This document shows, in pieces, positions 595 through 46,818 of a stretch of 47,825 bases of DNA. Source of the stretch: a virus. The position numbers and the translations under genes were made by a program. Where the stretch lies: IMG/VR virus record IMGVR_UViG_3300030399_000027, one strand, 5' to 3'. Positions within the stretch are counted from its first letter, which is position 1, and each line of letters starts with the position of its first letter. The notes below the pieces were generated by a model. The model worked only from the letters and a program-made list of their open reading frames with translations. It was not told the DNA's origin and made no database searches.

Positions 595-624
595 ATACTA
601 CCGTTACGATAGTTTAACAGTCAA
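595..624 (-). promoter_or_regulatory. Early sigma70-like promoter with embedded palindromic operator
   Basis: - strand reads TTGACT-gttaaactatcgtaacgg-TAGTAT (18-nt spacer). TACTACC 596-602, N5, GATAGTT 608-614. About 35 nt upstream of ATG 561. Confidence 0.6.
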
Positions 625-672
625 CACAAATTTAACTGTTCTTCCGAGCGAGGAAACCATGAGGGCGAAACT

Positions 673-1080
673 TTGGACGTTGATACATGCACTGATGCAG
701 GTAGCTGGCTATTCGATGACGGGAACGCCACCATTCGGCCACCCCTTGCACCTGACGACAACACCAATCGTCCATCGGTGAATGGTTTCAAGTTTGGGGA
801 TTGCTTCGTGGAGATTGACGGCAAGCGGTTCCGGCTCTATTCCGTGGCGCGCTCGCATGACCCGCAAGCGTTGATTGAGCGGGAATACGAGCCGGTGACT
901 TTCCCGACTGGATGGTCGGGCACGTTCGCTATCAGTTCGGATGGCAATGAACGCCTGAGTGAGTGGCTAGACAAGATAACGAAGGAAGCGCTTCGAACGG
1001 TTGTCGGACCCGCTCCTGATCGCCCGCGCAATCGTCGTGCGCAATGGTTGCAAAACCCTTTGGAGAGATTCGCCCGATGA
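673..1080 (+). CDS. hypothetical protein, 135 aa
   Basis: Track ORF. TTG start with GAGGG 7 nt upstream. First gene of a rightward overlapping operon. A competing 39-aa ATG-659 ORF in another frame is not excluded. Confidence 0.5.
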   Translation: MDVDTCTDAGSWLFDDGNATIRPPLAPDDNTNRPSVNGFKFGDCFVEIDGKRFRLYSVARSHDPQALIEREYEPVTFPTGWSGTFAISSDGNERLSEWLDKITKEALRTVVGPAPDRPRNRRAQWLQNPLERFAR

Positions 1081-1415
1081 CCCCTTCCGAAGTCGCGCGC
1101 ATCGCGCACGAGCTTGAGCGCGTGCATAACCCGCGTGCTGTGCGTTGGGAAGACCAAAGCCCGATGTATCGCAAGACGGCTACGCAATCGGCTGAGTTGA
1201 TCCTAGCGGGCCGGTTCGACATCAAGGCGCTGTTCGGGGAGCGGGCAGAGTTGCATGCGCTGTTTGCCGCGTGCATGCCGCCAGTCTGGAATGACGACGA
1301 GCCGAACGGCGAGCCTGACCGGAAGCCTGGATACAAGGAAAAGGAATTGCAGAGAGCGAACCCGGCGTTGCGCGAGTTGATGCAGCCGGGACCGTGCGAG
1401 ACGATTACTGTTTGA
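1077..1415 (+). CDS. hypothetical protein, 112 aa (MTPSEVARIAHEL...)
   Basis: Track ORF 1044..1415 trimmed to ATG 1077, which overlaps the previous stop (ATGA). Confidence 0.6.
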   Translation: MTPSEVARIAHELERVHNPRAVRWEDQSPMYRKTATQSAELILAGRFDIKALFGERAELHALFAACMPPVWNDDEPNGEPDRKPGYKEKELQRANPALRELMQPGPCETITV

Positions 1416-1465
1416 CCCGCCGTTGATACGGCCAATGCTTAAAGCGCCGATGCGCGAGGATCACC

Positions 1466-2152
1466 ATGCAACCACAATCACCCGTTCTCATGCTGGCGAG
1501 CGCCTTTGCTCATGCGGCGCACGGCGCAATCGGTCAACAGCGAAAGTACAACGGCGGCGACTACATTTCGCATCCGTGGCGCGTGGCTGGCATCGTGCAA
1601 AACGCTGGCGGATCCGATGATATGGTCGCGGCGGCATGGTTGCATGACGTGGTTGAAGACACGAAGATTGACCGGGGCATGATCGCGTATTTCTTTGGCG
1701 ATACCGTTGCCGACCTCGTAGTCGAGTGCTCGCACATTGACCGCACTGGCGATCCTCGCAAGCTGAACCGCTTCGAGCGGACGGCTATCGAGTTGGCCCG
1801 CGCTGCCGACATTTCGCCGGAAGCGAAGACCATCAAGCTTGCGGACCTGATCGACAACACGTCTAACATTTGCGCGTTCGATCCCGCGTTCGCCAAGGTG
1901 TACATGCCTGAAAAGCGCCGGTTGCTGATGGTGCTCAAGGGCGGTCACGAGGGATTGTGGGCTACGGCGAACAACCAGGTGGAAGCGTATTTTGCGGCGC
2001 CCGCTGCTACTGCCGAGCAAGCGCCGGTTGAGTCGCCTGCTGCCAACGAGCCGGAAGAGCCAGTAAAGCGCAAGCGTCGATTCATCCTGTTCCCGCCAAA
2101 CTTGATCGACCAAAAGCGCGCTGACCGTGTGGCGCGGGAGAAGGGGCGATGA
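1466..2152 (+). CDS. HD-domain (p)ppGpp/(p)ppApp pyrophosphohydrolase-like protein (SpoT/RelA hydrolase domain, small alarmone hydrolase type)
   Basis: HAAHGAIGQQRKYNGGDYISHPWRVAGI...AAAWLHDVVEDT matches the H..GQ.RK..G.PYI.HP..VA...LHD..EDT signature. GAGGA SD upstream. Confidence 0.75.
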   Translation: MQPQSPVLMLASAFAHAAHGAIGQQRKYNGGDYISHPWRVAGIVQNAGGSDDMVAAAWLHDVVEDTKIDRGMIAYFFGDTVADLVVECSHIDRTGDPRKLNRFERTAIELARAADISPEAKTIKLADLIDNTSNICAFDPAFAKVYMPEKRRLLMVLKGGHEGLWATANNQVEAYFAAPAATAEQAPVESPAANEPEEPVKRKRRFILFPPNLIDQKRADRVAREKGR

Positions 2153-2805
2153 GCTACACATACCGGTTGATGCTTCCGCCTGGTGAGCGAGAATTCAGCG
2201 AATTCATGATGTACGCCATAGGGCGTCGGGTCAGCGAATATCGCGTGATCGGTAATTCGGCGTTCATCACGTTGGACATATCTGCCCCGGAAACAGCCAA
2301 GCCAATTCCCGCTGTTCCCGAAAAGGCATCGAGCACTACGCCGTGGGCATCGCCTGATTTCGCTGCTGCCATGCGCCGAGGCTTGAGCGCTGCCGCCGAA
2401 TTCGAGCGCGTGCACGGCATGACGCCTTCTGAATATCGGGACCGGGAGAGTGCATTGCGTCGCACTGATCGCGATGCGTGGCAAAGGCAATATGCCGGAA
2501 AGTTCTCGCCCGATGTCCTAGCGAGCTTGATTCGGACAAAGACGTTGACGCCGATCCTCACTGATCGCGAGTTCTCCGCCAAGAAGGCTTGCGCGCCCGG
2601 TGGCGCGTTCGATCACGCTACGGTGGTACTTGGACGCTCAATCAGCATCGGCGAACGCTTGGAGCGCTTGGAAGCTGCCGTACTGGCGATTGCATCTAAC
2701 GACCCAGGCGGCCCGATCAAGTCGATACGCGATTTCCTGTCGTACAAGGTAAGCGAATCGCTGCGCAAGGCGCTGGTTCACTTCCCTGCGGAGAAGCGGC
2801 CATGA
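2149..2805 (+). CDS. hypothetical protein, 218 aa
   Basis: Track ORF. ATGA overlap with the HD gene. No domain recognised. Confidence 0.65.
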   Translation: MSYTYRLMLPPGEREFSEFMMYAIGRRVSEYRVIGNSAFITLDISAPETAKPIPAVPEKASSTTPWASPDFAAAMRRGLSAAAEFERVHGMTPSEYRDRESALRRTDRDAWQRQYAGKFSPDVLASLIRTKTLTPILTDREFSAKKACAPGGAFDHATVVLGRSISIGERLERLEAAVLAIASNDPGGPIKSIRDFLSYKVSESLRKALVHFPAEKRP

Positions 2806-2897
2806 GCATCATCGACGCGTGGCTCTGCTTTGTGTTTATACCGTTCGCGGCGGGGGTGTTGACGGCGTTTATCTGCTGGTCAACGCTTCGGCCTTAA
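2802..2897 (+). CDS. small hydrophobic peptide, 31 aa (MSIIDAWLCFVFIPFAAGVLTAFICWSTLRP)
   Basis: Hand translation. ATGA overlap with the previous gene. Single predicted TM segment. Confidence 0.4.
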   Translation: MSIIDAWLCFVFIPFAAGVLTAFICWSTLRP

Positions 2898-2906
2898 CGA
2901 TTTACA

Positions 2907-2957
2907 GGGCGCACAGAGATAGGCCGGGATACAGACCGGAGCGCCCTTCTTTACTTG
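2907..2957 (+). terminator. Possible intrinsic terminator closing the rightward accessory operon
   Basis: GGGCGC...CCGGgatacagaCCGG...GCGCCC compound stem followed by TTCTTTACTT. Confidence 0.35.
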
Positions 2958-3263
2958 AGTGCCCTTACGAGGAATGCCACTCGGACAGTAATGGTTCCCT
3001 TTAGCCGATGCGATCTAGGGTTAGCGACCTGGGCAGAAATGCAGCAAATAGGGGATTTACCGAGCAGTACGGCGTCACGTAGCAGATTGACAGTGCAGGG
3101 GCCGGGGCGCATTGCGCCGAACGGCATCCAACGTAAGGACATTCAAAGATCACGCGGGAAGACTGAGCACCAAGCGGTGAGGAAGCACTACGGACGATAG
3201 CACTGCCGCCCCTATACACCGGGCCGCGTGCGAAGCGTTGCGCTGGACTGGCGACATATCAGC

Positions 3264-3294
3264 CGAAAAAGATAGCCCTTTTGTATGCAGGGCT
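3264..3294 (-). terminator. Intrinsic terminator for leftward transcription
   Basis: - strand reads AGCCCTgcatacaaaAGGGCT followed by atcTTTTT. Confidence 0.55.
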
Positions 3295-3511
3295 GACGCT
3301 GATTAGCCTAGAGTCAAGTGAAAAATATGTGTGCCCGCGTTCAGTTTTCCCGCTCCCCATCCCTAAATTGCCCCATACCGCGCATGTGCGCGCGAGGAAC
3401 AGTCATGCGCCATTTGGCTGTTCCCTACGAGTCGTTCGGCCCGCGTTGCTGGTGGTGCGCTAGCCTACTGAACGGGCGAGCGCAATGCTGTGACCCGCGC
3501 AAGGTCGGGCG

Positions 3512-3676
3512 TTAGACGAAAGCCGGGTGATTGGCGTTATCCTCCTTCCGTGCTATCCAGATACCTTTGTCGTCGTGAAAGTCGCCCGCTGCATCGAACG
3601 TGCCGCTGAAAGCAGCGCCAAAGAAATATTCGCCCGACCAGCCGCGAACGCAAAGGTGCATCAGATATTTGTTCAT
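3512..3676 (-). CDS. hypothetical small protein, 54 aa (MNKYLMHLCVRGWSGEYFFG...)
   Basis: Hand translation has no internal stops. AGGAG 6 nt upstream of the ATG. Confidence 0.5.
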   Translation of the reverse strand: MNKYLMHLCVRGWSGEYFFGAAFSGTFDAAGDFHDDKGIWIARKEDNANHPAFV

Positions 3677-3715
3677 TCCAAGCTCCTGGGTTAGCCCCTC
3701 GCGGGGCCGGGTTGG

Positions 3716-3931
3716 TTAGGCGACAGGAACGATTTCAGCGCTGCGCATGAAGTCGCAAGCGTAGCAGTTCATCTTTTGATACCGCTCGGCCATGAACGGC
3801 TTCATCATGGCTTCGAACGCATCGCAGGCTTCCGAGCGACCGTTTGCAATCGGGCCAACGTGCTTGATTCCGAACCGCTTGTCGATTGCGACTACCCGGA
3901 ATTGCTCTACTTTCTTCAGTGACTTAACCAT
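3716..3931 (-). CDS. hypothetical protein, 71 aa
   Basis: Track ORF in a leftward operon. Confidence 0.55.
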   Translation of the reverse strand: MVKSLKKVEQFRVVAIDKRFGIKHVGPIANGRSEACDAFEAMMKPFMAERYQKMNCYACDFMRSAEIVPVA

Positions 3932-3957
3932 TTCGTTCCCCTTCGTGTGGTGAGTGG

Positions 3958-4131
3958 TTAGGCGCGACGCACGCCGACGACTTGGCCGACAACGCCCAGG
4001 CTCAACCAGTATTCGACAACGCTGTCACGGGCCGCTTCAGCGCTAACCGCGTGCATGTGGCAATCCATCGTGCCCTGTTCTGCTTGCGTGTGGCCGTCAA
4101 CGGTTTGCATGGTGATGATGAAGTGGGTCAT
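3958..4131 (-). CDS. hypothetical small protein, 57 aa (MTHFIITMQTVDGHTQ...)
   Basis: Hand translation. First ORF after promoter 4165-4192. Confidence 0.45.
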   Translation of the reverse strand: MTHFIITMQTVDGHTQAEQGTMDCHMHAVSAEAARDSVVEYWLSLGVVGQVVGVRRA

Positions 4132-4164
4132 TTTCGGCTCGCTCTGTTCGGTTGGTATGAGCGA

Positions 4165-4192
4165 ATACTACCATAACGGTATGAACAGTCAA
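4165..4192 (-). promoter_or_regulatory. Early sigma70-like promoter with embedded palindromic operator
   Basis: - strand reads TTGACT-N16-TAGTAT. TACTACC 4166-4172, N5, GGTATGA 4178-4184. The flanking AACAGT...ACTGTT element is shared with the 595-650 locus. Confidence 0.6.
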
Positions 4193-4228
4193 CAAGTATT
4201 TTAACTGTTGTGATTAAGGGTGATCTCT

Positions 4229-4447
4229 ATGACGCGTTTAGGTTGGCTTACCGTTCGGCTCCTGCAAACGATCCTGTTCTTTCTCCTGCTGACTGTCGTT
4301 ATCCCTGTCGGCGTGTCATGGTGGACGTGGTTCGCGATCTACCTGTTTTGGTCGGCTCGCAGTCTTACAGCGTTCATGCAGGGCGAATGGCACGCTCGGA
4401 ATTGTCGTAAGTGCCATCGCACCAGGCGCGTGTGGAGCAAAATCTGA
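4229..4447 (+). CDS. small membrane protein, 72 aa
   Basis: Track ORF 4220..4447 trimmed to ATG 4229. Hydrophobic LLQTILFFLLLTVVIPVGVSWWTWFAIYLFW. Confidence 0.55.
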   Translation: MTRLGWLTVRLLQTILFFLLLTVVIPVGVSWWTWFAIYLFWSARSLTAFMQGEWHARNCRKCHRTRRVWSKI

Positions 4448-4590
4448 TGCTGCGCTACCTACTCAACGCATACGAGCGCTGGCTACTTGAGCGCGCACAA
4501 AAGAAAACGGCCGAACGAATCGGCCAAAGGGTCTTACGGGATTCTGATCACGACCATCTGTTCGACTACCACTGGCGACCGTACGCCTAG
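4447..4590 (+). CDS. hypothetical small protein, 47 aa (MLRYLLNAYERWLLERAQKK...)
   Basis: Hand translation. TGATG overlap with the previous gene. Confidence 0.4.
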   Translation: MLRYLLNAYERWLLERAQKKTAERIGQRVLRDSDHDHLFDYHWRPYA

Positions 4591-4724
4591 TGGATGCCGT
4601 AGATAGCCACGCCAACCAGCAGGAATATGACGAACGCCCCGACAATCACGCCAAGGATTTTGAATCCATACGCGTCACGCTGGCGGCGCATATCGATGAT
4701 GTCTACTTTTACTCGTCTCGTCAT
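4587..4724 (-). CDS. single-pass membrane peptide, 45 aa (MTRRVKVDIIDMRRQRDAYGFKILGVIVGAFVIFLLVGVAIYGIH)
   Basis: Track ORF 4587..4961 trimmed to ATG 4724 with an AGGGG SD. C-terminal TM. Confidence 0.5.
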   Translation of the reverse strand: MTRRVKVDIIDMRRQRDAYGFKILGVIVGAFVIFLLVGVAIYGIH

Positions 4725-4762
4725 GGTGTACCCCTGGTTGATGTCCGCACAGTCTGCGCGGG

Positions 4763-4840
4763 CTATCTCGCTAAGTAAAGGGCTAGCGCTGGCCCGAACG
4801 CGATTGCGAACAGGACGCCGCCCAACAGAAAGTCTTTCAT
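4763..4840 (-). CDS. micro-ORF, 25-aa hydrophobic peptide (MKDFLLGGVLFAIAFGPALALYLAR)
   Basis: Hand translation. Starts 2 nt after the upstream stop. Confidence 0.35.
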   Translation of the reverse strand: MKDFLLGGVLFAIAFGPALALYLAR

Positions 4841-4842
4841 GG

Positions 4843-5019
4843 TCATTCCTCAAGCATTGAATACTGCTGAACCCGGGGCAAATTCGGCGGACGGGGCTTG
4901 TACCAGGGCGGGCGCGGCAAATCAGGGATAACCTGCGCTCCTGCCTTGATAGCTGCCTCACGTTCCTCGAATCGCTCGTACACGGGCTTCCCGGTCACTC
5001 CACCTAATGAGCGAGCCAT
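4843..5019 (-). CDS. hypothetical small protein, 58 aa (MARSLGGVTGKPVYERFEE...)
   Basis: Track ORF 4843..5082 trimmed to ATG 5019, coupled (TGATG) to the upstream micro-ORF. Confidence 0.45.
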   Translation of the reverse strand: MARSLGGVTGKPVYERFEEREAAIKAGAQVIPDLPRPPWYKPRPPNLPRVQQYSMLEE

Positions 5020-5111
5020 CAGCGAGCACGGAAACGCTGTGCGACCGCTACGCACGCCACGAACAGGCCAAACGCCAGCCACGTGACCACGGGGAAGTAG
5101 ATCGATGTCAT
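5019..5111 (-). CDS. micro-ORF, 30-aa TM peptide (MTSIYFPVVTWLAFGLFVACVAVAQRFRAR)
   Basis: Hand translation. ATGA overlap upstream and TGATG overlap downstream. Confidence 0.4.
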   Translation of the reverse strand: MTSIYFPVVTWLAFGLFVACVAVAQRFRAR

Positions 5112-5185
5112 TTCGAAGCCCGATGCGTGAACCACCACGCGAGTCCAGCGAACGCTAACCAAACCATCCACGTTGCGTTATCCAT
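5108..5185 (-). CDS. micro-ORF, 25-aa peptide (MDNATWMVWLAFAGLAWWFTHRASK)
   Basis: Hand translation. GGAG 5 nt upstream. ATGGATAA overlap with the upstream stop. TACTACC box 15 nt upstream. Confidence 0.35.
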   Translation of the reverse strand: MDNATWMVWLAFAGLAWWFTHRASK

Positions 5186-5363
5186 GATTACTCCAATTTC
5201 GGTAGTAGTTAAGGGCGTGCGTGATCTGCTCGATGACATCGCGTAGCCCTGCTAGATGCTTGTCGCGGAAACCTGACTGCGGAATGTGCGCCAGGACATT
5301 GCCTCGCTCGATACGCGCTGCATTGAGGCAAACGCCCAACGCGTATATGAGTTCAGCTTCCAC
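5178..5363 (-). CDS. hypothetical protein, 61 aa
   Basis: Track ORF. GTG start overlapping the stop of the upstream micro-ORF. Confidence 0.5.
   Translation of the reverse strand: MEAELIYALGVCLNAARIERGNVLAHIPQSGFRDKHLAGLRDVIEQITHALNYYRNWSNHG
5201..5207 (-). promoter_or_regulatory. Orientation-locked TACTACC box (gene-sense), 15 nt upstream of ATG 5185
   Basis: - strand reads TACTACC-gaaat-TGGAGTA-atc-ATG. Lies in the 3' end of the preceding ORF. Confidence 0.35.
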
Positions 5364-5439
5364 GATTCGCGCTCAGTGCTGCGATGACGGGCGCAACAAG
5401 TATGAAAAACGAGACTGCGAACTGATATGCGGTGCTCAT
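5353..5439 (-). CDS. micro-ORF, 28-aa TM peptide (MSTAYQFAVSFFILVAPVIAALSANRGS)
   Basis: Hand translation. First ORF after promoter 5474-5503. Confidence 0.4.
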   Translation of the reverse strand: MSTAYQFAVSFFILVAPVIAALSANRGS

Positions 5440-5473
5440 GATCGTTTCCTTTCGCTTCGCTAGTTGATGTCTC

Positions 5474-5503
5474 ATACTACCGAAACGATAGCAAATGCGC
5501 AAA
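5474..5503 (-). promoter_or_regulatory. Early promoter with embedded palindromic operator
   Basis: - strand reads TTTGCG-N18-TAGTAT. TACTACC 5475-5481, N5, GATAGCA 5487-5493. Confidence 0.5.
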
Positions 5504-5511
5504 CACTTATT

Positions 5512-5901
5512 TCAAGGTTTGTTGCTCGCCGTCCACTTTTGCCAGCGCTCGTAGCTCTGCGAACGTTGCGCCTTGGTCATCAGCGATATGCCGAGCATTT
5601 CGAAATCGATGCGCGGCGTACTGAGCCACGTAGCGCGGGTAGCTCGCTCTTTCCAGGCTAGCCACGCACCGTTGACGATCTTTGCTGACGCTTTGACCAA
5701 TTGCGGAATGCCAGCCCGCCACGCGTCGAATTCCTCGCGCTCGGCCTGCTCGTTCTGCTCGGCCGTGTGATCGTCGTCTAGCCAGATGTCGGAATACCCG
5801 GCATATCGCAGCGTGGCGAGCGTACGGGCCGCGTCGATGTCCTGGGCGAACACGTGCGCGATGGACACGGGAAGGCGCACGCAATAGCGGTTGAGGTTCA
5901 T
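5512..5901 (-). CDS. hypothetical protein, 129 aa
   Basis: Track ORF. 4-nt overlap with the upstream gene. Confidence 0.65.
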   Translation of the reverse strand: MNLNRYCVRLPVSIAHVFAQDIDAARTLATLRYAGYSDIWLDDDHTAEQNEQAEREEFDAWRAGIPQLVKASAKIVNGAWLAWKERATRATWLSTPRIDFEMLGISLMTKAQRSQSYERWQKWTASNKP

Positions 5902-6554
5902 TTGCTGGCCCCTATCGCATCGCTTGGCGCATCTGCGGGGCCTTTGAACGAGCGTAGACGTAGCTCGACCTCGCCATAGCGGACGTACGTGCCGTTGCGA
6001 TGCTCGACCATGCCAACGCCGGTCTGGTACGAATAGCGCGCAATTGGCAAGCCGTCTTCATCAGGTCCGAGAATGTTTGCCGGTCGCGCATCTGCGCCCT
6101 GCGTGGGGGCGGGGTGACATGCATCGCATTCGTGAAGATGTTTGCGCGTTGCGTCGCTGGTATGCCAAGGGTCAGGCGTTTCGGCACCGCAAGAATCACA
6201 CTTCAATTCATCGTGTTCTGCATCGCCTGGGGTAGCGAGAAACAACTTAACGCCTTCGCTAACCTTCAATTCCGGGTGTGCTGCTGCGAATTCCTCCGTA
6301 TAGCCGATGGCATTCAGCACGGCTACTAAGGTGTCCATTGCGTCCTGCGCCTCGGTCTTTAGTCGCCCGATCATCGCGTCCAGCATTCTGGTTTGGTCGC
6401 GCAGCAGTGCATTTTCTGCCGTCAGACCAGCCGGGTCACACATCGTTTCCAAGTCATGCACGCGGGAGTCATAGTCAGATGCAAGAACAAACTCGCGCAT
6501 TTGGTCCATGCCGTCGATGTTTGCATCCAGCGTGAATCGCTTAATTTCGCTCAT
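5898..6554 (-). CDS. hypothetical protein, 218 aa
   Basis: Track ORF. Overlapping operon arrangement. Confidence 0.7.
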   Translation of the reverse strand: MSEIKRFTLDANIDGMDQMREFVLASDYDSRVHDLETMCDPAGLTAENALLRDQTRMLDAMIGRLKTEAQDAMDTLVAVLNAIGYTEEFAAAHPELKVSEGVKLFLATPGDAEHDELKCDSCGAETPDPWHTSDATRKHLHECDACHPAPTQGADARPANILGPDEDGLPIARYSYQTGVGMVEHRNGTYVRYGEVELRLRSFKGPADAPSDAIGASK

Positions 6555-6988
6555 GATTTATCTCCGTCCGTAGACGCTGCAAGGAGGGCGTAGAAGTCGG
6601 TAAGCGTGCTGCGTGCGAGCCGATACCCTTCACGTACTCCAGATGTGTATATCGGATGCAGGCCCTGTCCGCGGTCGTTTCCCACGCGGTCAAGCCACGC
6701 CTCAACTACGGCATCGGTTAGTGCTTCACGGGCATCTGCTACAGGCACGTTCGCTTCGGGACTGGCAGGGGCGGCGAATCTAGACCAGCAGGATTTGCAG
6801 CGCAGAGCATCCACATGCGCATCACGCGTCTCAGCGATATTTCCGCAAGCGCAGTGCAGTGCAGTCGGCGCGCTTCCAGTGGTCGGAGCGGTGGATTCGA
6901 GCGAACTAGGATTGAGCGGGCATGAGAAGCCCTTGCAATACGCCCCTTCCGGTAGTTTCTTTTCGCACTTCGAGCATTTGACTGCCAT
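6551..6988 (-). CDS. hypothetical Cys-rich (zinc-ribbon-like) protein, 145 aa
   Basis: Track ORF. CSKC...C..FSC N-terminus. GGAGG SD. First gene after promoter 7014-7043. Confidence 0.65.
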   Translation of the reverse strand: MAVKCSKCEKKLPEGAYCKGFSCPLNPSSLESTAPTTGSAPTALHCACGNIAETRDAHVDALRCKSCWSRFAAPASPEANVPVADAREALTDAVVEAWLDRVGNDRGQGLHPIYTSGVREGYRLARSTLTDFYALLAASTDGDKS

Positions 6989-7013
6989 TTGGCCTCCTGT
7001 TGTGATTACGCCA

Positions 7014-7043
7014 ACACTACCTTCTCGATAGTATTTGCGTCAA
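7014..7043 (-). promoter_or_regulatory. Early sigma70-like promoter with embedded palindromic operator
   Basis: - strand reads TTGACG-N18-TAGTGT. CACTACC 7015-7021, N5, GATAGTA 7027-7033. Confidence 0.55.
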
Positions 7044-7060
7044 TGGTTATTTGATGGGGA

Positions 7061-7619: not shown

Positions 7620-7779
7620 AGCACCGACGCAGCGCAAAGACGTTGCTAGATGCGAACAGGTCTAACCAGTCGCATCCTTCCTTGCGAGCCGTTGTGACGC
7701 ATGCGAACGCCTCGGTAAAAGCTGTAACGACGCCGACCAAGCAACCGTCCGACTCGCGGAACACGTAGAACCGTTTCAT
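7606..7779 (-). CDS. hypothetical small protein, 57 aa (MKRFYVFRESDGCLVG...)
   Basis: Hand translation has no internal stops. Confidence 0.45.
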   Translation of the reverse strand: MKRFYVFRESDGCLVGVVTAFTEAFACVTTARKEGCDWLDLFASSNVFALRRCYERA

Positions 7780-7788
7780 TTATTGCCC

Positions 7789-7955: not shown

Positions 7956-7985
7956 ATACTACCGTAATGGTATTTTGCACGTCAA
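7956..7985 (-). promoter_or_regulatory. Early sigma70-like promoter with embedded palindromic operator, back-to-back with the terS leader
   Basis: - strand reads TTGACG-N18-TAGTAT. TACTACC 7957-7963, N5, GGTATTT 7969-7975. Confidence 0.6.
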
Positions 7986-19341: not shown

Positions 19342-19567
19342 TCGCGCGGAACACTCGCAGCAGGATATAGAGCGCGGGCAAGCCGATCACGAGCACGAAG
19401 AAGCAAAGTATTGACCGCCCCGCGATGCTCGCCACTTTCAAGGCCTGCTCTTTTCGCAGGGGCGAAAGTGTGCGCGATTGCACATTCAGCGGGCGGATAT
19501 TCGGATATTGCACAAACTCGAAATGATCGGCCGCCCACTCATGGAACTTGAAAAGGTAGTTTTTCAT
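19334..19567 (-). CDS. hypothetical membrane protein, 77 aa (C-terminal TM)
   Basis: Track ORF 19334..19594 trimmed to ATG 19567. It is the only ORF in the 270-bp gap. Weak support. Confidence 0.3.
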   Translation of the reverse strand: MKNYLFKFHEWAADHFEFVQYPNIRPLNVQSRTLSPLRKEQALKVASIAGRSILCFFVLVIGLPALYILLRVFRAIT

Positions 19568-19612
19568 AAGCCCAAAACGGTAGTAAAATGCCACTTCTAC
19601 ATCGGAGCGGCT

Positions 19613-30652: not shown

Positions 30653-30671
30653 TACTACCATTACGGTAGTA
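30653..30671. promoter_or_regulatory. Perfect 19-bp palindrome TACTACCattacGGTAGTA forming back-to-back -10 elements for the moron (leftward) and lysis (rightward) units
   Basis: - strand GGTAGTAT lies 36 nt from ATG 30617. + strand GTGACA-N15-TAGTAA lies 33 nt from ATG 30705. Confidence 0.6.
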
Positions 30672-33489: not shown

Positions 33490-33748
33490 TGTGCCAATAG
33501 GGTGCCACGCCGTCATTCGTAAATCCTAGTTGATTGATTTTAATGAGCATTTTCATTTAATCGGTCCCATATAATACCCGTTTTCGGCATTTTTCATACT
33601 ACCGTTAAGGGCTTGATTTGTATGGGCTTTACGATTGATGGCTTGAAAATACAGCAAATTCTCATTATCCCGAACCGCTTATTACTACCGTTAGAGTAGT
33701 TTCGTCCCTTGTCGACAGTGTGCCAGTGTGCCAAAATAGGTGCCACGC
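33489..33748. other. Candidate attP / int regulatory region: AT-rich core flanked by direct repeats carrying GTGCCA boxes
   Basis: GTGTGCCAATAGGGTGCCACGC (33489-33510) versus GTGTGCCAAAATAGGTGCCACGC (33726-33748). Immediately upstream of int. Contains two palindrome-motif copies (33597-33615 and 33683-33701). Confidence 0.4.
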
Positions 33749-35745: not shown

Positions 35746-35761
35746 ACTTCCTCACCATTTC

Positions 35762-35768
35762 GGTAGTA
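35762..35768 (-). promoter_or_regulatory. Orientation-locked TACTACC box, 16 nt upstream of TTG 35745
   Basis: - strand reads TACTACC-gaaat-GGTGAGG-aagt-TTG. Confidence 0.35.
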
Positions 35769-37586: not shown

Positions 37587-37601
37587 TTTTAATCCTATTT
37601 T

Positions 37602-37608
37602 GGTAGTA
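37602..37608 (-). promoter_or_regulatory. Orientation-locked TACTACC box, 15 nt upstream of ATG 37586
   Basis: - strand reads TACTACC-aaaat-AGGATTA-aaa-ATG. Confidence 0.35.
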
Positions 37609-38461: not shown

Positions 38462-38523
38462 GATTTTCCTAATGTCGGGTTGGCAAGTCAGTGAGCTAAC
38501 TATACAACCAATCTCACCGTTTT

Positions 38524-38530
38524 GGTAGTA
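38524..38530 (-). promoter_or_regulatory. TACTACC box with degenerate partner (TACTACC-aaaac-GGTGAGA), 62 nt upstream of the pentapeptide gene
   Basis: Intergenic position. Same orientation as the other boxes in the leftward operon. Confidence 0.35.
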
Positions 38531-41144: not shown

Positions 41145-41174
41145 ATACTATCGTTGCGGTAGCATTTGAGTCAA
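41145..41174 (-). promoter_or_regulatory. sigma70-like promoter with an embedded operator, plus a second operator copy at 41183-41201
   Basis: - strand reads TTGACT-N18-TAGTAT. TACTATC 41146-41152, N5, GGTAGCA 41158-41164. The upstream copy is TACTACC-ttttt-GGTTGAT, with centres 37 bp apart. Confidence 0.6.
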
Positions 41175-41200
41175 GACTTATTTACTACCTTTTTGGTTGA

Positions 41201-41866
41201 TCAGAATGGAATTTCGTCATCGAATCCATCCGGCGCGTTCGGATGCCCGCTGCTGGTAGTGCGCCGCGAGCCCAAGGATGATGACGCGTTGCCCTTATTC
41301 TTAACCGGGCGATCACGAAGCAATTCAAGGATCAGCGGATATTTCAGCGCCTGGGTCTTGCGATCCATGATTTCGGACGCGAACAGGTTGTCGGCTTCGC
41401 GGAACACCGCATTGAGTCGCGTTGACCAACCAAATTCGCCGGTCGGCTTGCCATCCTGCTTTTTCTCATATTCCTCCATGATGAACATGAGGCCGATTTG
41501 TTTGTTCAGCAGTTCGGGAAACTGCAACAGAACCTTTTCTTCGTTCTGCTTTGTGTCTGCGTTCCAGACCTGCGACTTGACCTTGGCTTCGGTCAATTCC
41601 TTCACGCTCATGCAGGCCATGATTGCAATGAGCAAGCCGTAATCGCCAAGCTTGGTCCCGTCTTCCTTGACGGTGTACACGGTGAAGTTCGCCATATCCC
41701 CATCGTTCCCCTTGAACGAGAACGAGACGCCATGCGTGCCGGTCGTGGCTAGTATCTTTTCGGCCTTGGTGAAAACGCCAGTGAAAGCGCCCTTCACGTC
41801 GATAAAGTGAGTGCGGTTCTCTGCCTTGCGTGCTGCGTCAACTGCATCTTTGGTCAGTGCGTACAT
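41201..41866 (-). CDS. phage single-stranded-DNA-binding-like protein with an SSB-type acidic tip
   Basis: Ends ...DGFDDEIPF (compare E. coli SSB DDDIPF). Adjacent to the Sak4-like ATPase. Confidence 0.6.
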   Translation of the reverse strand: MYALTKDAVDAARKAENRTHFIDVKGAFTGVFTKAEKILATTGTHGVSFSFKGNDGDMANFTVYTVKEDGTKLGDYGLLIAIMACMSVKELTEAKVKSQVWNADTKQNEEKVLLQFPELLNKQIGLMFIMEEYEKKQDGKPTGEFGWSTRLNAVFREADNLFASEIMDRKTQALKYPLILELLRDRPVKNKGNASSSLGSRRTTSSGHPNAPDGFDDEIPF

Positions 41867-42668: not shown

Positions 42669-42698
42669 ATCATATCGAAACGATAGTAATTGCGTCAA
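42669..42698 (-). promoter_or_regulatory. sigma70-like promoter with an embedded operator, plus a second operator copy at 42707-42725
   Basis: - strand reads TTGACG-N18-TATGAT. Half sites 42670-42676 and 42682-42688. The upstream copy is TACTACC-gttta-GGTATTT, with centres 37 bp apart. Confidence 0.6.
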
Positions 42699-42724
42699 GA
42701 ACTATTTACTACCGTTTAGGTATT

Positions 42725-43243
42725 TTATCTCGGCAACCATCCATGAGACTTGTAGGTCGCGTGGAGCTTGGCCGTTGCGGACTTCCCAAGGGCGAGCGCT
42801 GCTTTCTGAACCTTGACGCCCAAGCGGACGGTTACAGTCTTCGAAATGTTGTTCGCCTTCGCAATGTCGCCAAAGCTTGGGCAATACGTTTCTCCGATCA
42901 TGAATTCCCGGTCGATGACTGCGGCGAGCAATGTCGCGTTGGCGTGAAGGTGCGAGAACGCTGCGCAAAGTGTGTCCAGCGCCCCGCGCTTCGCTTCTCC
43001 TGCCCCGTCATAAGTCGCCGTGCACCAAGCCATTTGCGCGGCGCTCAATGCGTCTTGCGTGGCCTTCATTATCCAAACCGCTTGCGCTACCTGATCCAGA
43101 CGCGAAAGCTTCCCCTTCTTTTCGGTAGCGTTCGCCGTGGGCTCGTCGTATGACGGGCACTTGATTCCCTCTGCTACTGCGAGATTTTCGAACGAGAACG
43201 ACAGACCGCTATGTACTGAGCCGAAGATACATATTCTTTGCAT
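42725..43243 (-). CDS. hypothetical protein, 172 aa
   Basis: Track ORF. No confident family assignment. Confidence 0.6.
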   Translation of the reverse strand: MQRICIFGSVHSGLSFSFENLAVAEGIKCPSYDEPTANATEKKGKLSRLDQVAQAVWIMKATQDALSAAQMAWCTATYDGAGEAKRGALDTLCAAFSHLHANATLLAAVIDREFMIGETYCPSFGDIAKANNISKTVTVRLGVKVQKAALALGKSATAKLHATYKSHGWLPR

Positions 43244-43398
43244 CGCTTTATCATCCTTTTATTTTTTGCGCAGATAGCGCCGTCAAAGACCGGTGTTGCC
43301 CCTAATGACCACACGCAACCCTTGCAGGTTCGCTCCTCGCGCTCAATCAAAATGTCCAATGGATCGCGGCAATAGTCGCTGCGTCGAAGTTCATCCAT
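43174..43398 (-). CDS. hypothetical Cys-containing protein, 74 aa
   Basis: Track ORF 43174..43470 trimmed to ATG 43398 (ATGGATGA overlap with the HNH stop). Its 3' end overlaps the next gene by 70 nt. Confidence 0.35.
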   Translation of the reverse strand: MDELRRSDYCRDPLDILIEREERTCKGCVWSLGATPVFDGAICAKNKRMIKRCKEYVSSAQYIAVCRSRSKISQ

Positions 43399-43861
43399 AG
43401 TTGGCAAACTCACCGTGGTACTTGTCGGCGGCCGTTTTGTATGCCTCATGAGCCTCGCGGGGAGTGTCAAACAACCCTAGGCTTATGGTTTTTTTGTTGG
43501 CTCGTATTCTGGCTTGCCACCTGAGTGCCTGCCTATGCCACGTAACCCCCTTGTACCCTGACGTATTGTTTTTCTGCGCGGGTCTGTTCCACATATTTTG
43601 TGTGTGAGTCGCGATGCGAAGGTTATAACGCTGGTTGTTGCCGCGAATCATATCCACGTGATCGATTCGCCTAGGGTCGCCCTGCTCAAGGCCCATGATG
43701 ACGCGATGCATTGGGATAGTTGATCGCTCGCCCGTCGCGTGGTCTACATATTCTCGAACGGCGTAGCCGTCATCAGCAGCCCATTCGAATGAATTTATCC
43801 ATTCGTAATCCGCGTCATCGACTAGGGCGAAATATCCTTTTGTTAGCGGGATTATCTTCAT
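43391..43861 (-). CDS. HNH homing endonuclease with an AP2 DNA-binding domain
   Basis: HR...G......IDHVD....NNQ..NLR......N (HNH_3-like), followed by SGYKGVTWH...RWQARI...K...LG.F.T..EA..AY (AP2). Confidence 0.8.
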   Translation of the reverse strand: MKIIPLTKGYFALVDDADYEWINSFEWAADDGYAVREYVDHATGERSTIPMHRVIMGLEQGDPRRIDHVDMIRGNNQRYNLRIATHTQNMWNRPAQKNNTSGYKGVTWHRQALRWQARIRANKKTISLGLFDTPREAHEAYKTAADKYHGEFANYG

Positions 43862-44921: not shown

Positions 44922-45701
44922 TTAAAAAGGAATGTCGCCGGATTGATTGCTTCCGTAGTTCATCGATTTTAGATCATATGCTCTAGACTGTCCAACCATT
45001 TTGGTAGTATTTGATTTCGAGCGAGTGGGGGCATACAAGCCTTGATAACCTCCTGCTATCGAGTGGTCGATGACTTCAAGCGGCTCGTATCCTTCCTCGC
45101 GGTACGCAACCAGCTTTGTAAGGCATTGTTCAACAGAAAGACCCGTCATCGTCTTTCCGATCTGCTTGCGGTGCTGGACCCACTTCTCCCAAACTTCAAC
45201 GGCGAGCCATTCAGGAAGAATCGCTTGCACGTCCGACATCCGAGCGGCCCGCTTAGTCTTCTTTAAAGCTTTTACAGTCTTAGTTTCTAAGTCAGTATTA
45301 ACTAGTGGCGGAATTTCCCGATCTGGGTTTTCCCTGTTTGGGAAATTCCCGTTCTGCTGATCTGATAGCAAATCGGGATTTTCCCGTTCTGCTGATTCTT
45401 CCTCTTGGCGCTCGTCGTAGACCATGTAGTCAAGCGTTCCGTCGCGGTGCTTGTGCTTGGTCATGTACCCCGCGTTCAGCAGTTCCTTGATGATTGAGTA
45501 GACGCCATCCTTGCCAACGTTCTTGGGCGTGGCCGGGAGGGTGAAATTTACAAGTGCCTCAACGCACACGCGCCATTCGTCGGGCTTGGCGAGCAGGAAC
45601 ACGAGCATTCCTTTCGCCGCCCATGAAATGCCCGGATCATTGGCGAGCGAGTTTTCCAGCATGTAGAACCCACGTGACTTTTGCTTTGAACGAACGATCA
45701 T
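44922..45701 (-). CDS. replication initiator (lambda O-like role: N-terminal winged helix, internal iterons, C-terminal DnaD-like region)
   Basis: Sits upstream of the loader gene. Iterons lie inside the gene. Ends ...SGDIPF. Confidence 0.7.
   Translation of the reverse strand: MIVRSKQKSRGFYMLENSLANDPGISWAAKGMLVFLLAKPDEWRVCVEALVNFTLPATPKNVGKDGVYSIIKELLNAGYMTKHKHRDGTLDYMVYDERQEEESAERENPDLLSDQQNGNFPNRENPDREIPPLVNTDLETKTVKALKKTKRAARMSDVQAILPEWLAVEVWEKWVQHRKQIGKTMTGLSVEQCLTKLVAYREEGYEPLEVIDHSIAGGYQGLYAPTRSKSNTTKMVGQSRAYDLKSMNYGSNQSGDIPF
45003..45009 (-). promoter_or_regulatory. TACTACC box inside the initiator gene, 3 nt upstream of an in-frame ATG (44999)
   Basis: - strand reads AAATACTACC-aaa-ATG-GTTGG. 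Confidence 0.3.
45309..45395. repeat. Iteron-like direct repeats (candidate ori) inside the initiator gene
   Basis: Four copies of GGRWWTTCCCGWTCTG-like units: 45309-45324, 45325-45340, 45341-45360, 45375-45395. Confidence 0.6.
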
Positions 45702-45955
45702 GCGGATTTCTCCGCTATCTTCGGCGCATTGGCCTCCATAAGCTCGGTTACGCCCAGGTTGTGCCCGGTCATTTCGAGCGCTGCGGCCGACAGTTCCTTA
45801 GCCAGATCGTAGCCAGGACGCTTCCGGCCGTGCTTGATGTGCTCGAAGTAGGAGAATTTCGTTCCGGCCCTCTCGCACACCTTGGTTACAATTTCCGTTC
45901 CGACTGCGTGCCAGAACTCCATTGCGCTGATCGCTTTCTTTTGCTTGGTAGCCAT
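45698..45955 (-). CDS. Cro/YdaS-like HTH regulator
   Basis: 85 aa. First gene of the leftward replication operon, divergent from the CI-like gene. GAGGAG SD. Confidence 0.65.
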   Translation of the reverse strand: MATKQKKAISAMEFWHAVGTEIVTKVCERAGTKFSYFEHIKHGRKRPGYDLAKELSAAALEMTGHNLGVTELMEANAPKIAEKSA

Positions 45956-46111
45956 AAACTCCTCGTTTAGTTACGAAATACCACCATTATGGTAGTCTAC
46001 TTTCGCGGACAAAAGCAAGCGCGGAACGGACGCGCCGCTTTGTTGCGTGGCTTATTCGTATCTTTATGGTATGGTTCTATTTATCGAATAACTACCAACG
46101 AAGGCAGCGTC
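45956..46111. promoter_or_regulatory. Divergent immunity (switch) region between the Cro-like and CI-like genes
   Basis: Contains TACCACC-attat-GGTAGTC (45979-45997) and AACTACC (46090-46096). A candidate leftward promoter is TTGTCC-N17-TAATGG. Confidence 0.55.
46090..46096 (+). promoter_or_regulatory. Orientation-locked (A)ACTACC box, 15 nt upstream of ATG 46112
   Basis: + strand reads AACTACC-aacga-AGGCAGC-gtc-ATG. Confidence 0.35.
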
Positions 46112-46489
46112 ATGGACGTTTACCATATCCGCTTCAAAAACTATCAATTTCTATTTGACAGGTTCAAGGAATCCGTTTGGCGAGAGTGGCCTGGCGAGCC
46201 CGAACACGGAATGTTGCGCCGGTTCGGAACTCGCCTGGACATCAGCGAAGCCTACATGTCTCACCTGAACACGCAGTACAAGCCTATCGGCACGCGCATG
46301 GCCCGTAAGATCGAAGCTGCGCTAAAGCTACCGGCCGGGTGGATGGATCAGGATCACGACAACGGAGCGCCACGCACGCCCGACGAAGCAGACTTCGTGA
46401 AAGCGGCCGTCGAGCTATATCGTCAAAGTCCGAACGAAGCGCAAGCCGCACTAATTCAAGCACTTACGAAAAAGATGCTGGATAGCTAG
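46112..46489 (+). CDS. CI-like HTH repressor, 125 aa, with no recognisable S24 autocleavage domain
   Basis: Track ORF trimmed to ATG 46112. HTH-like ...RRFGTRLDISEAYMSHLNTQYKPIGTRMARKIEAAL.LP.GWMD. Divergent from the cro-like gene. Confidence 0.65.
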   Translation: MDVYHIRFKNYQFLFDRFKESVWREWPGEPEHGMLRRFGTRLDISEAYMSHLNTQYKPIGTRMARKIEAALKLPAGWMDQDHDNGAPRTPDEADFVKAAVELYRQSPNEAQAALIQALTKKMLDS

Positions 46490-46555
46490 CACAATTGTCC
46501 ATGTTTTGATCTGTCGAATATAGGGAATAATACCCGTAACATCTAGTTACCCATT

Positions 46556-46575
46556 TACTACCAATTAGGTATAAT
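46556..46575 (+). promoter_or_regulatory. Promoter with a consensus -10 embedded in the palindrome motif
   Basis: TACTACC-aatta-GGTATAAT, with TATAAT at 46570-46575. A weak -35 GTTACC lies 18 nt upstream. Confidence 0.5.
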
Positions 46576-46587
46576 TGATGCACGTCT

Positions 46588-46803
46588 ATGAGGGGCGCTA
46601 AATTTACCGGAGCGGGAACGATGGACTGCAATACGGCCGTAATAATAAGAATTGAAACAACCAACATTGATGCTATGCGCCGAGATAGCTCAAGGAAGCC
46701 GGATGTACTGAGCGAGGCTGATTTCGTGTATGCGCTGTCGATGCTTTCATCGGTAGAACGAGAAGTGTTGTTAAAAAGCATCAGTAAAACGGTAGTAAAT
46801 TAA
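46588..46803 (+). CDS. hypothetical protein, 71 aa (alternative start ATG 46621)
   Basis: Track ORF downstream of the TATAAT promoter. No domain recognised. Confidence 0.45.
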   Translation: MRGAKFTGAGTMDCNTAVIIRIETTNIDAMRRDSSRKPDVLSEADFVYALSMLSSVEREVLLKSISKTVVN

Positions 46804-46818
46804 ACTACCAAAAAGCGC

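Follow-up and report, generated by a model that had tools for sequence, protein, structure and literature searches.

A recurrent 19-bp palindrome in viral promoters is a probable operator of a short CI-like repressor

The operator of lambda is the palindrome TATCACC-N3-GGTGATA. Phage P1 carries 22 C1 operators, which are scattered over its genome (PMC8546580). The stoperators of Cluster A mycobacteriophages are 13-bp, asymmetric and oriented motifs that occur 20-30 times per genome, mostly outside promoters, and block elongation; phages of this cluster with an identical helix-turn-helix (HTH) can have distinct motifs (PMC6550527). The SAS/ESAS elements of Cluster K mycobacteriophages are located 3-7 bp upstream of start codons, contain a Shine-Dalgarno core, and are found in one orientation and at non-structural genes only (PMC3203893). 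Here, a 19-bp inverted repeat, TACTACC-N5-GGTAGTA, is described in the virus record IMGVR_UViG_3300030399_000027, whose 47,825 analysed nucleotides are referred to as the window. An earlier note on this DNA had proposed that the repeat binds a dimeric regulator that clamps many promoters one by one, and comparative evidence supports this proposal. Judged from sequence, the 19-mer is probably the operator at which a short, non-cleavable CI-like repressor encoded by this temperate phage itself (46112-46489) binds, over the -10 of nearly all early promoters.

The palindrome is strongly enriched. On both strands of the whole window, 20 exact TACTACC/GGTAGTA heptamers were found (about 1.2 expected; 1.22), 11 as TACTACC and 9 as GGTAGTA on the + strand, which replaces the earlier count of 18 (10 and 8). 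None of 100 shuffled sequences reached this number. The 19-mer with at most three mismatches was matched 18 times against 0.38 expected, and a symmetric position weight matrix (PWM) returned 19 sites of at least 12 bits against 0.28 in simulations; this matrix was trained on 15 of its own sites, and the heptamer and mismatch counts are the independent tests. The core of the 19-mer is CTAyC-N5-GrTAG. About 89% of the window is coding and about 11% non-coding, and at least 16 of the 19 strong PWM sites are intergenic when start codons are re-read, in agreement with the claim that the palindrome recurs almost only between genes. The structural block had been described as free of heptamers except for one at an endonuclease gene; the endonuclease copy is there, but another half-site (9778-9784) is located in this late block, inside the large terminase gene.

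Seven leftward sigma70-type promoters, here called class I, contain the 19-mer in a single fixed register, with the last half-site serving as the -10 TAGTAT. Their layout consists of an UP-like AAATA block, the -35 TTGAC(T/G) (TTTGCG once), 4 nt (2 nt once) and the 19-mer, whose final 5 nt plus one further nucleotide form the -10 (TAGTAT, TAGTGT or TATGAT), and start codons follow 30-37 nt downstream. All are on the minus strand: 595..624 (TTGACT, 18-nt spacer, TAGTAT; 19-mer 596-614), preceding a 52-aa and a 118-aa gene that it would drive; 4165..4192 (TTGACT, 16-nt spacer, TAGTAT; 19-mer 4166-4184), assigned to three small genes at 3512-4131; 5474..5503 (TTTGCG, 18-nt spacer, TAGTAT; 19-mer 5475-5493); 7014..7043 (TTGACG, 18-nt spacer, TAGTGT; 19-mer 7015-7033), assigned to the genes at 5512-6988; 7956..7985 (TTGACG, 18-nt spacer, TAGTAT; 19-mer 7957-7975), back to back with the small terminase gene; 41145..41174 (TTGACT, 18-nt spacer, TAGTAT; 19-mer 41146-41164), within the leftward early operon and downstream of an SSB-like gene; and 42669..42698 (TTGACG, 18-nt spacer, TATGAT; 19-mer 42670-42688), before a Sak4-like gene. 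These are the seven positions given in the earlier note, and a neutral consensus promoter scan recovered five of them exactly (624-595, 4192-4165, 7985-7956, 42698-42669 and 41174-41145), the first three being its sole matches in region 1-8600. Two auxiliary 19-mers, 41183..41201 and 42707..42725, stand immediately upstream of the -35 elements of promoters 41145 and 42669, and the centre-to-centre distance reported for them, 37 bp in each case (41146 to 41183, 42670 to 42707), is correct. This spacing puts the paired sites on opposite faces of the helix, which was counted against the CI operator.

An information profile was built from 14 promoters of the window and of a relative with 88% CI identity, with a selection regex that imposes part of the signal. 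At 0.8-1.8 bits per position, the spacer half reads C-T-A-y-C, the mirror image of G-r-T-A-G in the -10 half, and the central 5 nt are less informative than the half-sites. RNA polymerase with sigma70 does not read spacers, and yet the spacer half of the palindrome is conserved as well as the -35 and the -10, which supports an operator.

Sites outside promoters are the minority of all copies. The perfect palindrome TACTACCattacGGTAGTA (30653..30671), fully symmetric on inspection as had been claimed, is flanked by a leftward gene pair (GDSL-acylhydrolase and methyltransferase) and by the lysis cassette, which is rightward; either half could act as a -10, with poor -35 spacing (14-16 nt). A rightward promoter-operator (46547..46575, +; TTACCC, 17-nt spacer, TATAAT; 19-mer 46556-46574) precedes a conserved 60-aa ORF. 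The copy between cro and cI, TACCACCattatGGTAGTC (45979..45997), is kept in the relative with 88% CI identity, but no class I -35 or -10 was recognized around it and the cro promoter is not of class I, so that the description of the palindrome as part of every early promoter was an overstatement. The previously listed copies at 33683-33701, 45979-45997 and 46556-46574 all match the 19-mer with at most three mismatches; upstream of the integrase gene, 33683..33701 (+) scores 20.5 bits, and 33597-33615, listed as a full copy, is reduced to a half-site (33597-33603, 11.5 bits). A weak copy (19567..19585, +; 15.9 bits, one perfect half) stands before the GIY-YIG homing endonuclease gene. Upstream of a DnaC-like gene, the degenerate half of 44991..45009 (-) overlaps the -35 of a predicted internal promoter (44994 to 44966, -; TGGACA, 17-nt spacer, TAAAAT).

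Three minus-strand copies stop 3-4 nt short of a start codon, over the ribosome-binding site: TACTACCgaaatTGGAGTA (5189..5207), 3 nt before the ATG of a small conserved ORF, where the degenerate half is itself the ribosome-binding site; TACTACCgaaatGGTGAGG (35750..35768), 4 nt before the TTG of a 116-aa gene; and TACTACCaaaatAGGATTA (37590..37608), 3 nt before the ATG of the exonuclease gene and preceded by a terminator-like hairpin at 37636-37616. Another intergenic copy (38512..38530, -) is located 51 nt upstream of a pentapeptide-repeat gene and is kept in the related locus L126. An everted half-site pair (46790..46810, -) reads on the minus strand like a terminator hairpin, and its two arms are kept in the relative. 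The block just upstream of cI (46052..46105, +), identical at 53 of 54 nt to the relative with 88% CI identity, contains a weak 19-mer (46056-46074, 8.6 bits) and the half-site AACTACC (46090-46096), and is a candidate for the cI promoter and autoregulatory region.

The CI-like repressor candidate (46112..46489, +; 125 aa) has an XRE-type HTH, whose recognition helix is SEAYMSHLNTQYK, and ends in a module of two helices; a peptidase (self-cleavage) domain is lacking. Its residues 1-83 are 33% identical to the DNA-binding domain of the lambdoid cI of H-19B and mEp506, and it matches PHROG repressor and regulator families; Pfam and NCBIfam did not recognize it. For its AF2 model, moderately confident at a pLDDT of 73 (four sequences), the best PDB match was the Rep repressor 5d50 of Salmonella phage SPC32H (probability 1.0), a statistically weak match at 27-29% identity (E 0.018), followed by XRE HTH proteins. 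A LexA box was looked for and is absent. The Cro-like HTH protein (45698..45955, -; 85 aa) is encoded divergently from cI. The conserved 60-aa ORF (46621..46803, +), downstream of cI and under the operator-bearing promoter, might, speculatively, encode an anti-repressor.

In the related loci L124, L125 and L126, sites are kept at equivalent positions while the flanks diverge, and the relative with 88% CI identity likewise retains them amid diverged flanks. Some 50 related loci were grouped according to their CI-like recognition helix, and heptamers were counted (observed/expected). GGTAGTA was enriched in the loci with (S/R)EAYMSH(L/I)NT (33/1.6 and 83/3.7), GGTAGCA in those with SDRYLSH (11/1.6), and GGTATCC in those with SKIYLSQ (8/0.9), where GGTAGTA was not found. 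An unbiased symmetric 7-N5-7 search gave the same words at the top: GGTAGTA for EAYMSH (p=2e-22 and 4e-21), GGTAGCA for DRYLSH (2e-8) and GGTATCC for KIYLSQ (1e-6). The changes are symmetric across both halves and the promoter register is retained, although the variant half-sites pull the -10 off consensus (TAGCAT, TATCTT). Groups D and A2 are both 46% identical to the window CI, and D differs in helix and motif. The half-site thus covaries with the CI recognition helix; the helix groups are clades, so the covariation amounts to about three or four independent changes and may partly reflect co-inheritance. In a group of 44-47% identity with the same CI helix, the partner half-site is xxxTCTC instead of TACTACC; such asymmetric sites are not predicted by a simple symmetric dimer and speak against the CI operator.

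The earlier note had left the choice between the CI-like and the Cro-like protein. Lambdoid operators are common to CI and Cro, and the Cro-like protein, by itself or jointly with CI as in lambda, could be the main reader, shutting the promoters in lytic growth. It is a small HTH protein with a gene divergent from cI, every group has a conserved, syntenic member of its family, and the 44-47% group departs from the window in the Cro helix as well as in the spacer half-site. However, groups A1, A2 and A3 all enrich GGTAGTA with a constant CI helix despite very different Cro helices, even within A2. Because the half-site changes symmetrically with the CI helix and not with the Cro helix, CI is favoured, and Cro as the main reader is unlikely.

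That the motif is merely a lineage-specific promoter design for the host RNA polymerase (UP, -35, favoured spacer and extended -10 GGTAGTAT), with no repressor involved, is highly improbable: GGTAGTAT does double as the -10 of every class I promoter, and distant relatives have both this -35 (TTGACTGT) and the AAATA block, but the spacer half mirrors the -10 half though sigma70 ignores it, strong copies are found without -35/-10 context (5189, 37590, 38512, 41183, 42707 and 45979), and relatives alter both halves symmetrically at the cost of a worse -10. There is a very slight chance that the palindrome is bound by a host (Burkholderiales) transcription factor, the phage promoters having joined a host regulon. 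The host is uncultured with uncharacterized regulators, and the chromosomal loci of group E have a mild GGTAGTA excess (17 against 2.5 expected); yet the motif shifts between close phage groups with the phage-encoded helix, which is unexpected for a fixed host factor, the LexA box is absent, and no such operator was found in the literature searched. An RNA hairpin (7-bp stem, 5-nt loop) that sequesters ribosome-binding sites or terminates or processes transcripts would suit the three start-proximal copies and the everted one, but is scarcely credible, because the predicted class I transcription start lies downstream of the palindrome, which is thus outside the promoter's own transcript, the start-proximal copies have degenerate halves that pair poorly, an Rfam search gave no matching family, and covariation with a DNA-binding helix points to a DNA site.

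The operator of the CI-like repressor is therefore the preferred reading, based on the conservation of the spacer half, the copies outside promoters, the conservation of sites in the relative and the covariation with the CI helix. The repressor would bind the 19-mer as a symmetric dimer. At eight or nine promoters at least, the operator would extend from 4 nt past the -35 into the -10, with its centre near -17, and a bound dimer would cover the -10 hexamer and the spacer and exclude RNA polymerase; we infer repression rather than activation. Early and accessory genes appear to be split into many small units with strong promoters (UP-like AAATA, TTGAC, TAGTAT), and since each unit has its own operator-bearing promoter, a single repressor species could silence all of them in the lysogen. 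These would comprise two promoters inside the leftward early operon, near the Sak4 and SSB genes, five units of the 0-8 kb arm, the small ORF adjoining cI and, probably, the region at 30653 that controls lysis and cargo. The other copies lie over a -35 (one), 37 bp upstream of promoters (two), over ribosome-binding sites (three), and close to cro, to int and to the GIY-YIG gene; they may add repression by -35 occlusion, as cooperative helpers or as roadblocks.

Compared with known systems, the SPC32H Rep is the best match in sequence and structure, a non-cleavable phage repressor solved bound to an antirepressor; the comparison covers the protein, and the window yielded no Ant homologue. The three start-proximal copies resemble the Cluster K SAS/ESAS in standing just before start codons, but they are only three and are versions of the promoter operator 19-mer, whereas SAS is a separate 13-bp asymmetric motif without an assigned function. 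Lambda shares the HTH homology with the cI N-terminal domain, the divergent cI and cro, the overlap of operators with promoter elements, and a palindromic operator with a 7-bp half-site. It differs in that two tripartite operators control its two promoters, binding is cooperative and the C-terminal domain is RecA-cleavable, whereas here single operators with an N5 spacer stand at about nine or more promoters, and peptidase domain and LexA box are lacking.

The likeness to L5 stoperators drawn in the earlier note stands for the many dispersed sites. As in Cluster A, the motif co-evolves with the repressor, some sites lie inside operons away from promoters in a single orientation relative to transcription, and groups A1 and A2 have an identical HTH yet distinct motifs; the likeness fails in that the strong sites here are mostly palindromic promoter operators, and the protein family and host phylum differ. 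The dispersed C1 operators of P1 are the closer analogue: one non-cleavable repressor serves many separate promoters, and most sites are true promoter operators. Coi, which inactivates C1, is, like the 60-aa ORF, a small protein beside the repressor gene under a repressor-controlled promoter, a likeness of gene position and control. Unlike the asymmetric 17-mers of P1 (ATTGCTCTAATAAATTT), bound by the unrelated C1, the 19-bp site here is palindromic, keeps one register and provides the -10. One protein could thus shut off many separate transcription units, which is conceptually a familiar kind of phage regulation.

The 19-mer TACTACC-N5-GGTAGTA is over-represented in the window and concentrated in regulatory DNA, as is characteristic of the operator of a phage immunity repressor. 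Its exact half-site (TACTACC or GGTAGTA) occurs 20 times against 1.22 expected, a count reached by no shuffled sequence, and the 19-mer with up to three mismatches is present in 18 copies, where 0.38 are expected. A symmetric matrix recovers 19 sites of at least 12 bits against 0.28 in simulated sequence, but it was trained on 15 of its own sites, so that only the two former counts are independent tests. Coding density is ~89%, yet of the 19 strong sites at least 16 are intergenic, in the non-coding ~11% of the window. The earlier note, made from the sequence alone, had described the palindrome as recurrent and lying mostly between genes, which these counts bear out; its tally of 18 half-sites falls short by two, and its statement that the structural block holds none apart from one at an endonuclease gene overlooked a half-site at 9778, in the large terminase gene. 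A scan of IMG/VR for the exact palindrome returned single chance matches only, in unrelated, mostly AT-rich contigs, and was uninformative. The 19-mer was not found as a known operator in the literature searched, and an Rfam search of the window returned tRNAs only, with no family matching the 19-mer.

The window is a complete phage genome, circularly assembled or terminally redundant, because its terminal 127 nt are identical (nt 1-127 and nt 47699-47825 form a perfect direct repeat) and the same ~47.8-kb sequence recurs, nearly unchanged, in several metagenome assemblies. The phage is temperate; it encodes an integrase (33761-34870), an excisionase (34849-35115) and a divergent pair of small regulators (45698-45955 on the minus strand and 46112-46489 on the plus strand). 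The leftward early operon encodes an O-like initiator, a DnaC-like loader, HNH-AP2, Sak4, SSB-like and ParB-HTH proteins, a pentapeptide-repeat protein, an exonuclease, VRR-NUC, NinB and Xis. The structural block is read rightward, starting with the small terminase gene (8009), and the lysis cassette begins at 30705. The arm at 0-8 kb carries many small leftward units and a rightward module with an HD-domain protein; the leftward unit from the promoter at 595 runs on across the junction of the window. A nucleotide search against deposited phages found no close relative, the sole match being a 384-nt segment of Sak4 at 74%. Relatives of the CI-like repressor are encoded in Burkholderiales genomes, e.g., those of Rhodoferax, Roseateles and Mitsuaria.

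Several other sequence features accompany this layout. A tRNA-Ala (UGC) gene at 46930-47004 is directly followed by a weak tRNA-like match of 100 nt (47010-47109; 30.1 bits, threshold 29), perhaps a degenerate tRNA or an interrupted one, and a promoter is predicted at 46819-46847. About 600 nt at ~2900-3500 contain no called gene in the annotation of any assembly, and large gene-free gaps also occur in relatives; long-range inverted repeats in this stretch (2955-2984 with 3117-3146, 30 nt, 77% complementary) may reflect a structured RNA. Two 22-nt direct repeats, GGGA(A/T)(A/T)TTCCCGTTCTGCTGAT, lie 35 nt apart in the O-like initiator gene (45340-45361 and 45375-45396) and are candidate iterons or a candidate origin. 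In the pentapeptide-repeat gene (37652-38461), 15-nt units are repeated in tandem over a long stretch (37912-38436), a part that varies in length among relatives (239, 259 and 269 aa). Terminators consisting of a GC-rich hairpin and a T-run are repeated in the late region (11556-11577, 16168-16189 and 31670-31691), and a 46-nt repeat, 85% identical (17808-17853 and 31679-31724), follows two late terminators upstream of the genes at 17854 and 31699 and may represent a regulatory module common to late genes. Three genes of homing-endonuclease type are present in this single 47.7-kb genome, i.e., GIY-YIG/NUMOD3 (19508-20269), HNH (31699-32127) and HNH-AP2 (43391-43861); the first splits the tail gene block and is preceded by a weak copy of the 19-mer.

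Seven leftward sigma70-type promoters, here called class I (595-624, 4165-4192, 5474-5503, 7014-7043, 7956-7985, 41145-41174 and 42669-42698), align without gaps on the transcribed strand as an AAATA block, TTGAC(T/G), 4 nt and the 19-mer. The -10 element is made up of the last five bases of the 19-mer and the following T (TAGTAT in five, TAGTGT in one, TATGAT in one), and start codons lie 30-37 nt downstream. The common register had been claimed from manual reading; besides the gapless alignment, a neutral scan for consensus promoters recovers five of the seven at exactly the coordinates originally proposed, including the only three matches in 1-8600. An eighth promoter, rightward, has the same register (46547-46575; TTACCC, 17-nt spacer, TATAAT). 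The perfect palindrome at 30653 lies between a leftward pair of genes for a GDSL acylhydrolase and a methyltransferase and the rightward lysis genes; either of its halves could serve as a -10, but the spacing to a -35 is poor. Operator-bearing promoters are placed at 0.6, 4.2, 5.5, 7.0, 8.0, 30.7, 41.1, 42.7 and 46.6 kb. In the seven leftward promoters and the rightward one the 19-mer covers spacer and -10, and a repressor bound across these core elements would exclude RNA polymerase. Neither P_cro nor P_cI could be defined from the consensus; the block upstream of cI (46052-46105) contains weak sites only and is identical at 53 of 54 nt to that of a relative whose CI is 88% identical.

A second palindrome, AACAG-N15/16-CTGTT, has 8 matches against 0.77 expected. 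Two copies, at 616-640 and ~4186-4211, span the -35/UP region of class I promoters facing divergent genes, and a third lies at 3398-3422, in the gene-free stretch. The palindrome is kept at the equivalent promoters of relatives (L124 and L127), even at only 44% CI identity, and might be bound by a second regulator.

Activation by DNA distortion of the MerR type, in which the dyad is centered in an over-long spacer of 19-20 bp and is bound by a MerR-family regulator, was rejected on geometry, the spacers here being 16-18 bp with the dyad center moved onto the -10, near -17, and no MerR-family protein was present among the window genes scanned. The 19-mer might also be a promoter element alone, and its last bases do form the -10. 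The sequence evidence nevertheless supports an operator, because the spacer half is conserved as a mirror image, copies occur outside promoters, and sites are kept while their flanks diverge. Sigma70 does not read spacers. An information profile of 14 class I promoters, drawn from the window and from the relative whose CI is 88% identical, gives 0.8-1.8 bits at each position of the spacer half, C-T-A-y-C, which is a mirror image of the G-r-T-A-G in the -10 half; the central 5 nt are less informative. Part of this spacer signal is imposed by the regular expression used to select the promoters, which did not select for the AAATA block. In the same relative, 19-mer sites are retained at equivalent positions between diverged flanks. 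Strong copies also occur outside the class I register: at 41183 and 42707, 37 bp upstream of promoter copies; at 44991, overlapping a predicted internal promoter at its -35; and at 45979, 33683, 38512 and 19567, near cro, int, the pentapeptide-repeat gene and the GIY-YIG gene, respectively. Three others (5189, 35750 and 37590) end 3-4 nt before a start codon, their degenerate half being the ribosome-binding site.

A 25-nt extended repeat, ATT(T/A)CGGTAGTA-N5-G(G/A)GCGTGC, was also noted at 293-317, 5196-5220 and 35757-35781. Two of its copies encode, in frame, the peptide HAxxYYRN, either within a small gene or at its end, and the remaining one comes after a TAG stop in that frame.

The product of 46112-46489 is a CI-like protein of 125 aa, encoded divergently from the cro-like gene (85 aa) and containing a DNA-binding domain. 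Pfam and NCBIfam gave no matches for the CI-like protein, the Cro-like protein or the adjoining small ORF, and the HTH assignment therefore rests on PHROG regulator and repressor families, on tblastn (residues 1-83 are 33% identical to the DNA-binding domain of lambdoid cI) and on a fold search. The AF2 model (pLDDT 73) has six helices, and it comes closest in fold to 5d50 (probability 1.0, E 0.018), the structure of a Salmonella-phage Rep repressor in complex with the antirepressor, ahead of a long list of XRE-type HTH proteins. The family comprises 410 representatives at E up to 1e-3 (~410 at 50% identity). All relatives, including those of 190-210 aa, share a C-terminal two-helix module, ahead of which the longer ones add only Pro/Ala-rich linkers. 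The protein has no peptidase domain (125 aa, no Pfam match), and thus lacks the S24 peptidase/oligomerization C-terminus and autocleavage site of a lambda-type CI; a search of the window for LexA boxes found none, so that no SOS input is evident. Directly downstream of cI, in every group of relatives defined below, lies a small ORF of ~45-80 aa with the signature SExEF[VLI]xA..LSxxER (46621-46803 in the window, 6218-6460 in L125, 10547-10747 in L127, and others). The window copy (60 aa) is driven by the operator-bearing TATAAT promoter. Its paralogy with the CI C-terminal module (residues 85-102) was considered and not established, as hhalign did align the ORF to this stretch, but at a probability of 1.1% (P=0.047, not significant), and BLASTP gave nothing.

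About 50 loci encoding CI relatives were collected and grouped by predicted recognition helix. Ranking de novo palindromes by their raw count brought up mainly GC-rich words and gave way to a composition-corrected test of symmetric 7-N5-7 words; this test, an unbiased heptamer search and a cross-table all agree. Groups A1, A2 and A3, with the helix (S/R)EA[YF][ML]SH, carry GGTAGTA (observed/expected 33/1.6, 83/3.7 and 5/0.2). Group B (SDRYLSH) carries GGTAGCA (11/1.6), and group D (SKIYLSQ) carries GGTATCC (8/0.9) and not a single GGTAGTA. Group C (L150; SPRYLSH) is the weakest case and was treated as such, with GGTAGCC enriched (10/1.3) but no clear examples in promoter register. In groups B and D both halves have changed symmetrically, to TGCT(A/T)CC-N5-GGTAGCA and GATACC-N5-GGTATC, and the variants keep the promoter register, so that the -10 becomes TAGCAT or TATCTT, which is not what RNA polymerase would select for.

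Half-site and recognition helix thus covary among relatives, three or four helix groups having a half-site each; since the groups are clades, this amounts to about three or four independent changes. Overall divergence does not explain the pattern, because the CI of group D is as similar to that of the window (46%) as A2 is (44-47%), yet differs in helix and motif. A Cro-like protein is likewise encoded in all groups and would be a second candidate for reading the 19-mer, but its recognition helix varies widely among A1, A2 and A3, all of which share GGTAGTA; the half-site therefore tracks CI rather than Cro. The comparison supports the CI-like protein as the regulator that binds the motif, where the earlier note had proposed the operator of a CI-like or a Cro-like dimer, and its interpretation is sharpened accordingly. 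Group A2 (L131-L148, CI 43-47% identical) has the same CI helix, yet pairs GGTAGTA with xxxTCTC, giving an asymmetric 19-mer that is used both as a promoter -10 and, reversed, as TACTACC-N5-GAGAG(SD) before start codons.

Use in two orientations, as -10 and as Shine-Dalgarno sequence, is seen in the window and its 88%-CI relative, and the 44-47% group shows it in the form TACTACC-N5-GAGAG. A broader reading, which we consider improbable, would make the 19-mer a dual-use control word, serving one way as the -10 and the other way, through its degenerate half, as the Shine-Dalgarno of an internal gene. On this view, one family of short repressors would gate both transcription initiation and gene starts inside operons, the latter by a roadblock at the ribosome-binding region, and the ORF next to cI would be a Coi-like inactivator replacing RecA cleavage for induction.

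The operator and the short CI-like repressor, of a family missed by Pfam and NCBIfam, define a likely immunity system for an uncharacterized lineage of Burkholderiales temperate phages known from metagenomes only. The natural variants (EAYMSH/GGTAGTA, DRYLSH/GGTAGCA and KIYLSQ/GGTATCC) provide a ready-made small specificity series for DNA reading by XRE-type helices and could allow superinfection immunity groups to be predicted from sequence. The promoter-operator module is compact (~45 bp) and predicted to be strong (UP-like block, TTGAC, TAGTAT), and could yield orthogonal repressible promoters.

Systems of this kind are already known, and the window adds a new and well-delineated one. Its unusual traits are a fixed-register operator doubling as the -10, copies over ribosome-binding sites and, beside cI, a conserved small ORF. 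The HTH of the repressor is lambdoid-like, but the tripartite operators and cleavable domain of lambda are absent. It had been suggested that the scheme is conceptually nearer to the stoperators of mycobacteriophage L5 than to lambda. L5-type stoperators are asymmetric, oriented with transcription and mostly outside promoters, and they block elongation (PMC6550527), whereas the window has palindromic sites, with about nine of its ~19 strong ones embedded in promoters; the likeness holds only for five or six intra-operon copies of shared orientation. In Cluster A repressors, HTH identity and motif are likewise reported to be dissociated (PMC6550527), which resembles the unchanged CI helix and altered partner half of A2. 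The copies next to start codons are reminiscent of the start-associated sequences of Cluster K mycobacteriophages (PMC3203893). The closest logic is that of P1, in which C1, a non-cleavable repressor, acts on many promoters through 22 scattered, asymmetric operators and is inactivated by the small Coi protein (PMC8546580). The window shares with it many singly controlled promoters and one non-cleavable repressor, a likeness of logic only, as the CI-like protein is not a C1 homolog. With no new principle involved, the window adds a palindromic, Gram-negative case to the P1/L5 style of genome-wide repressor control.
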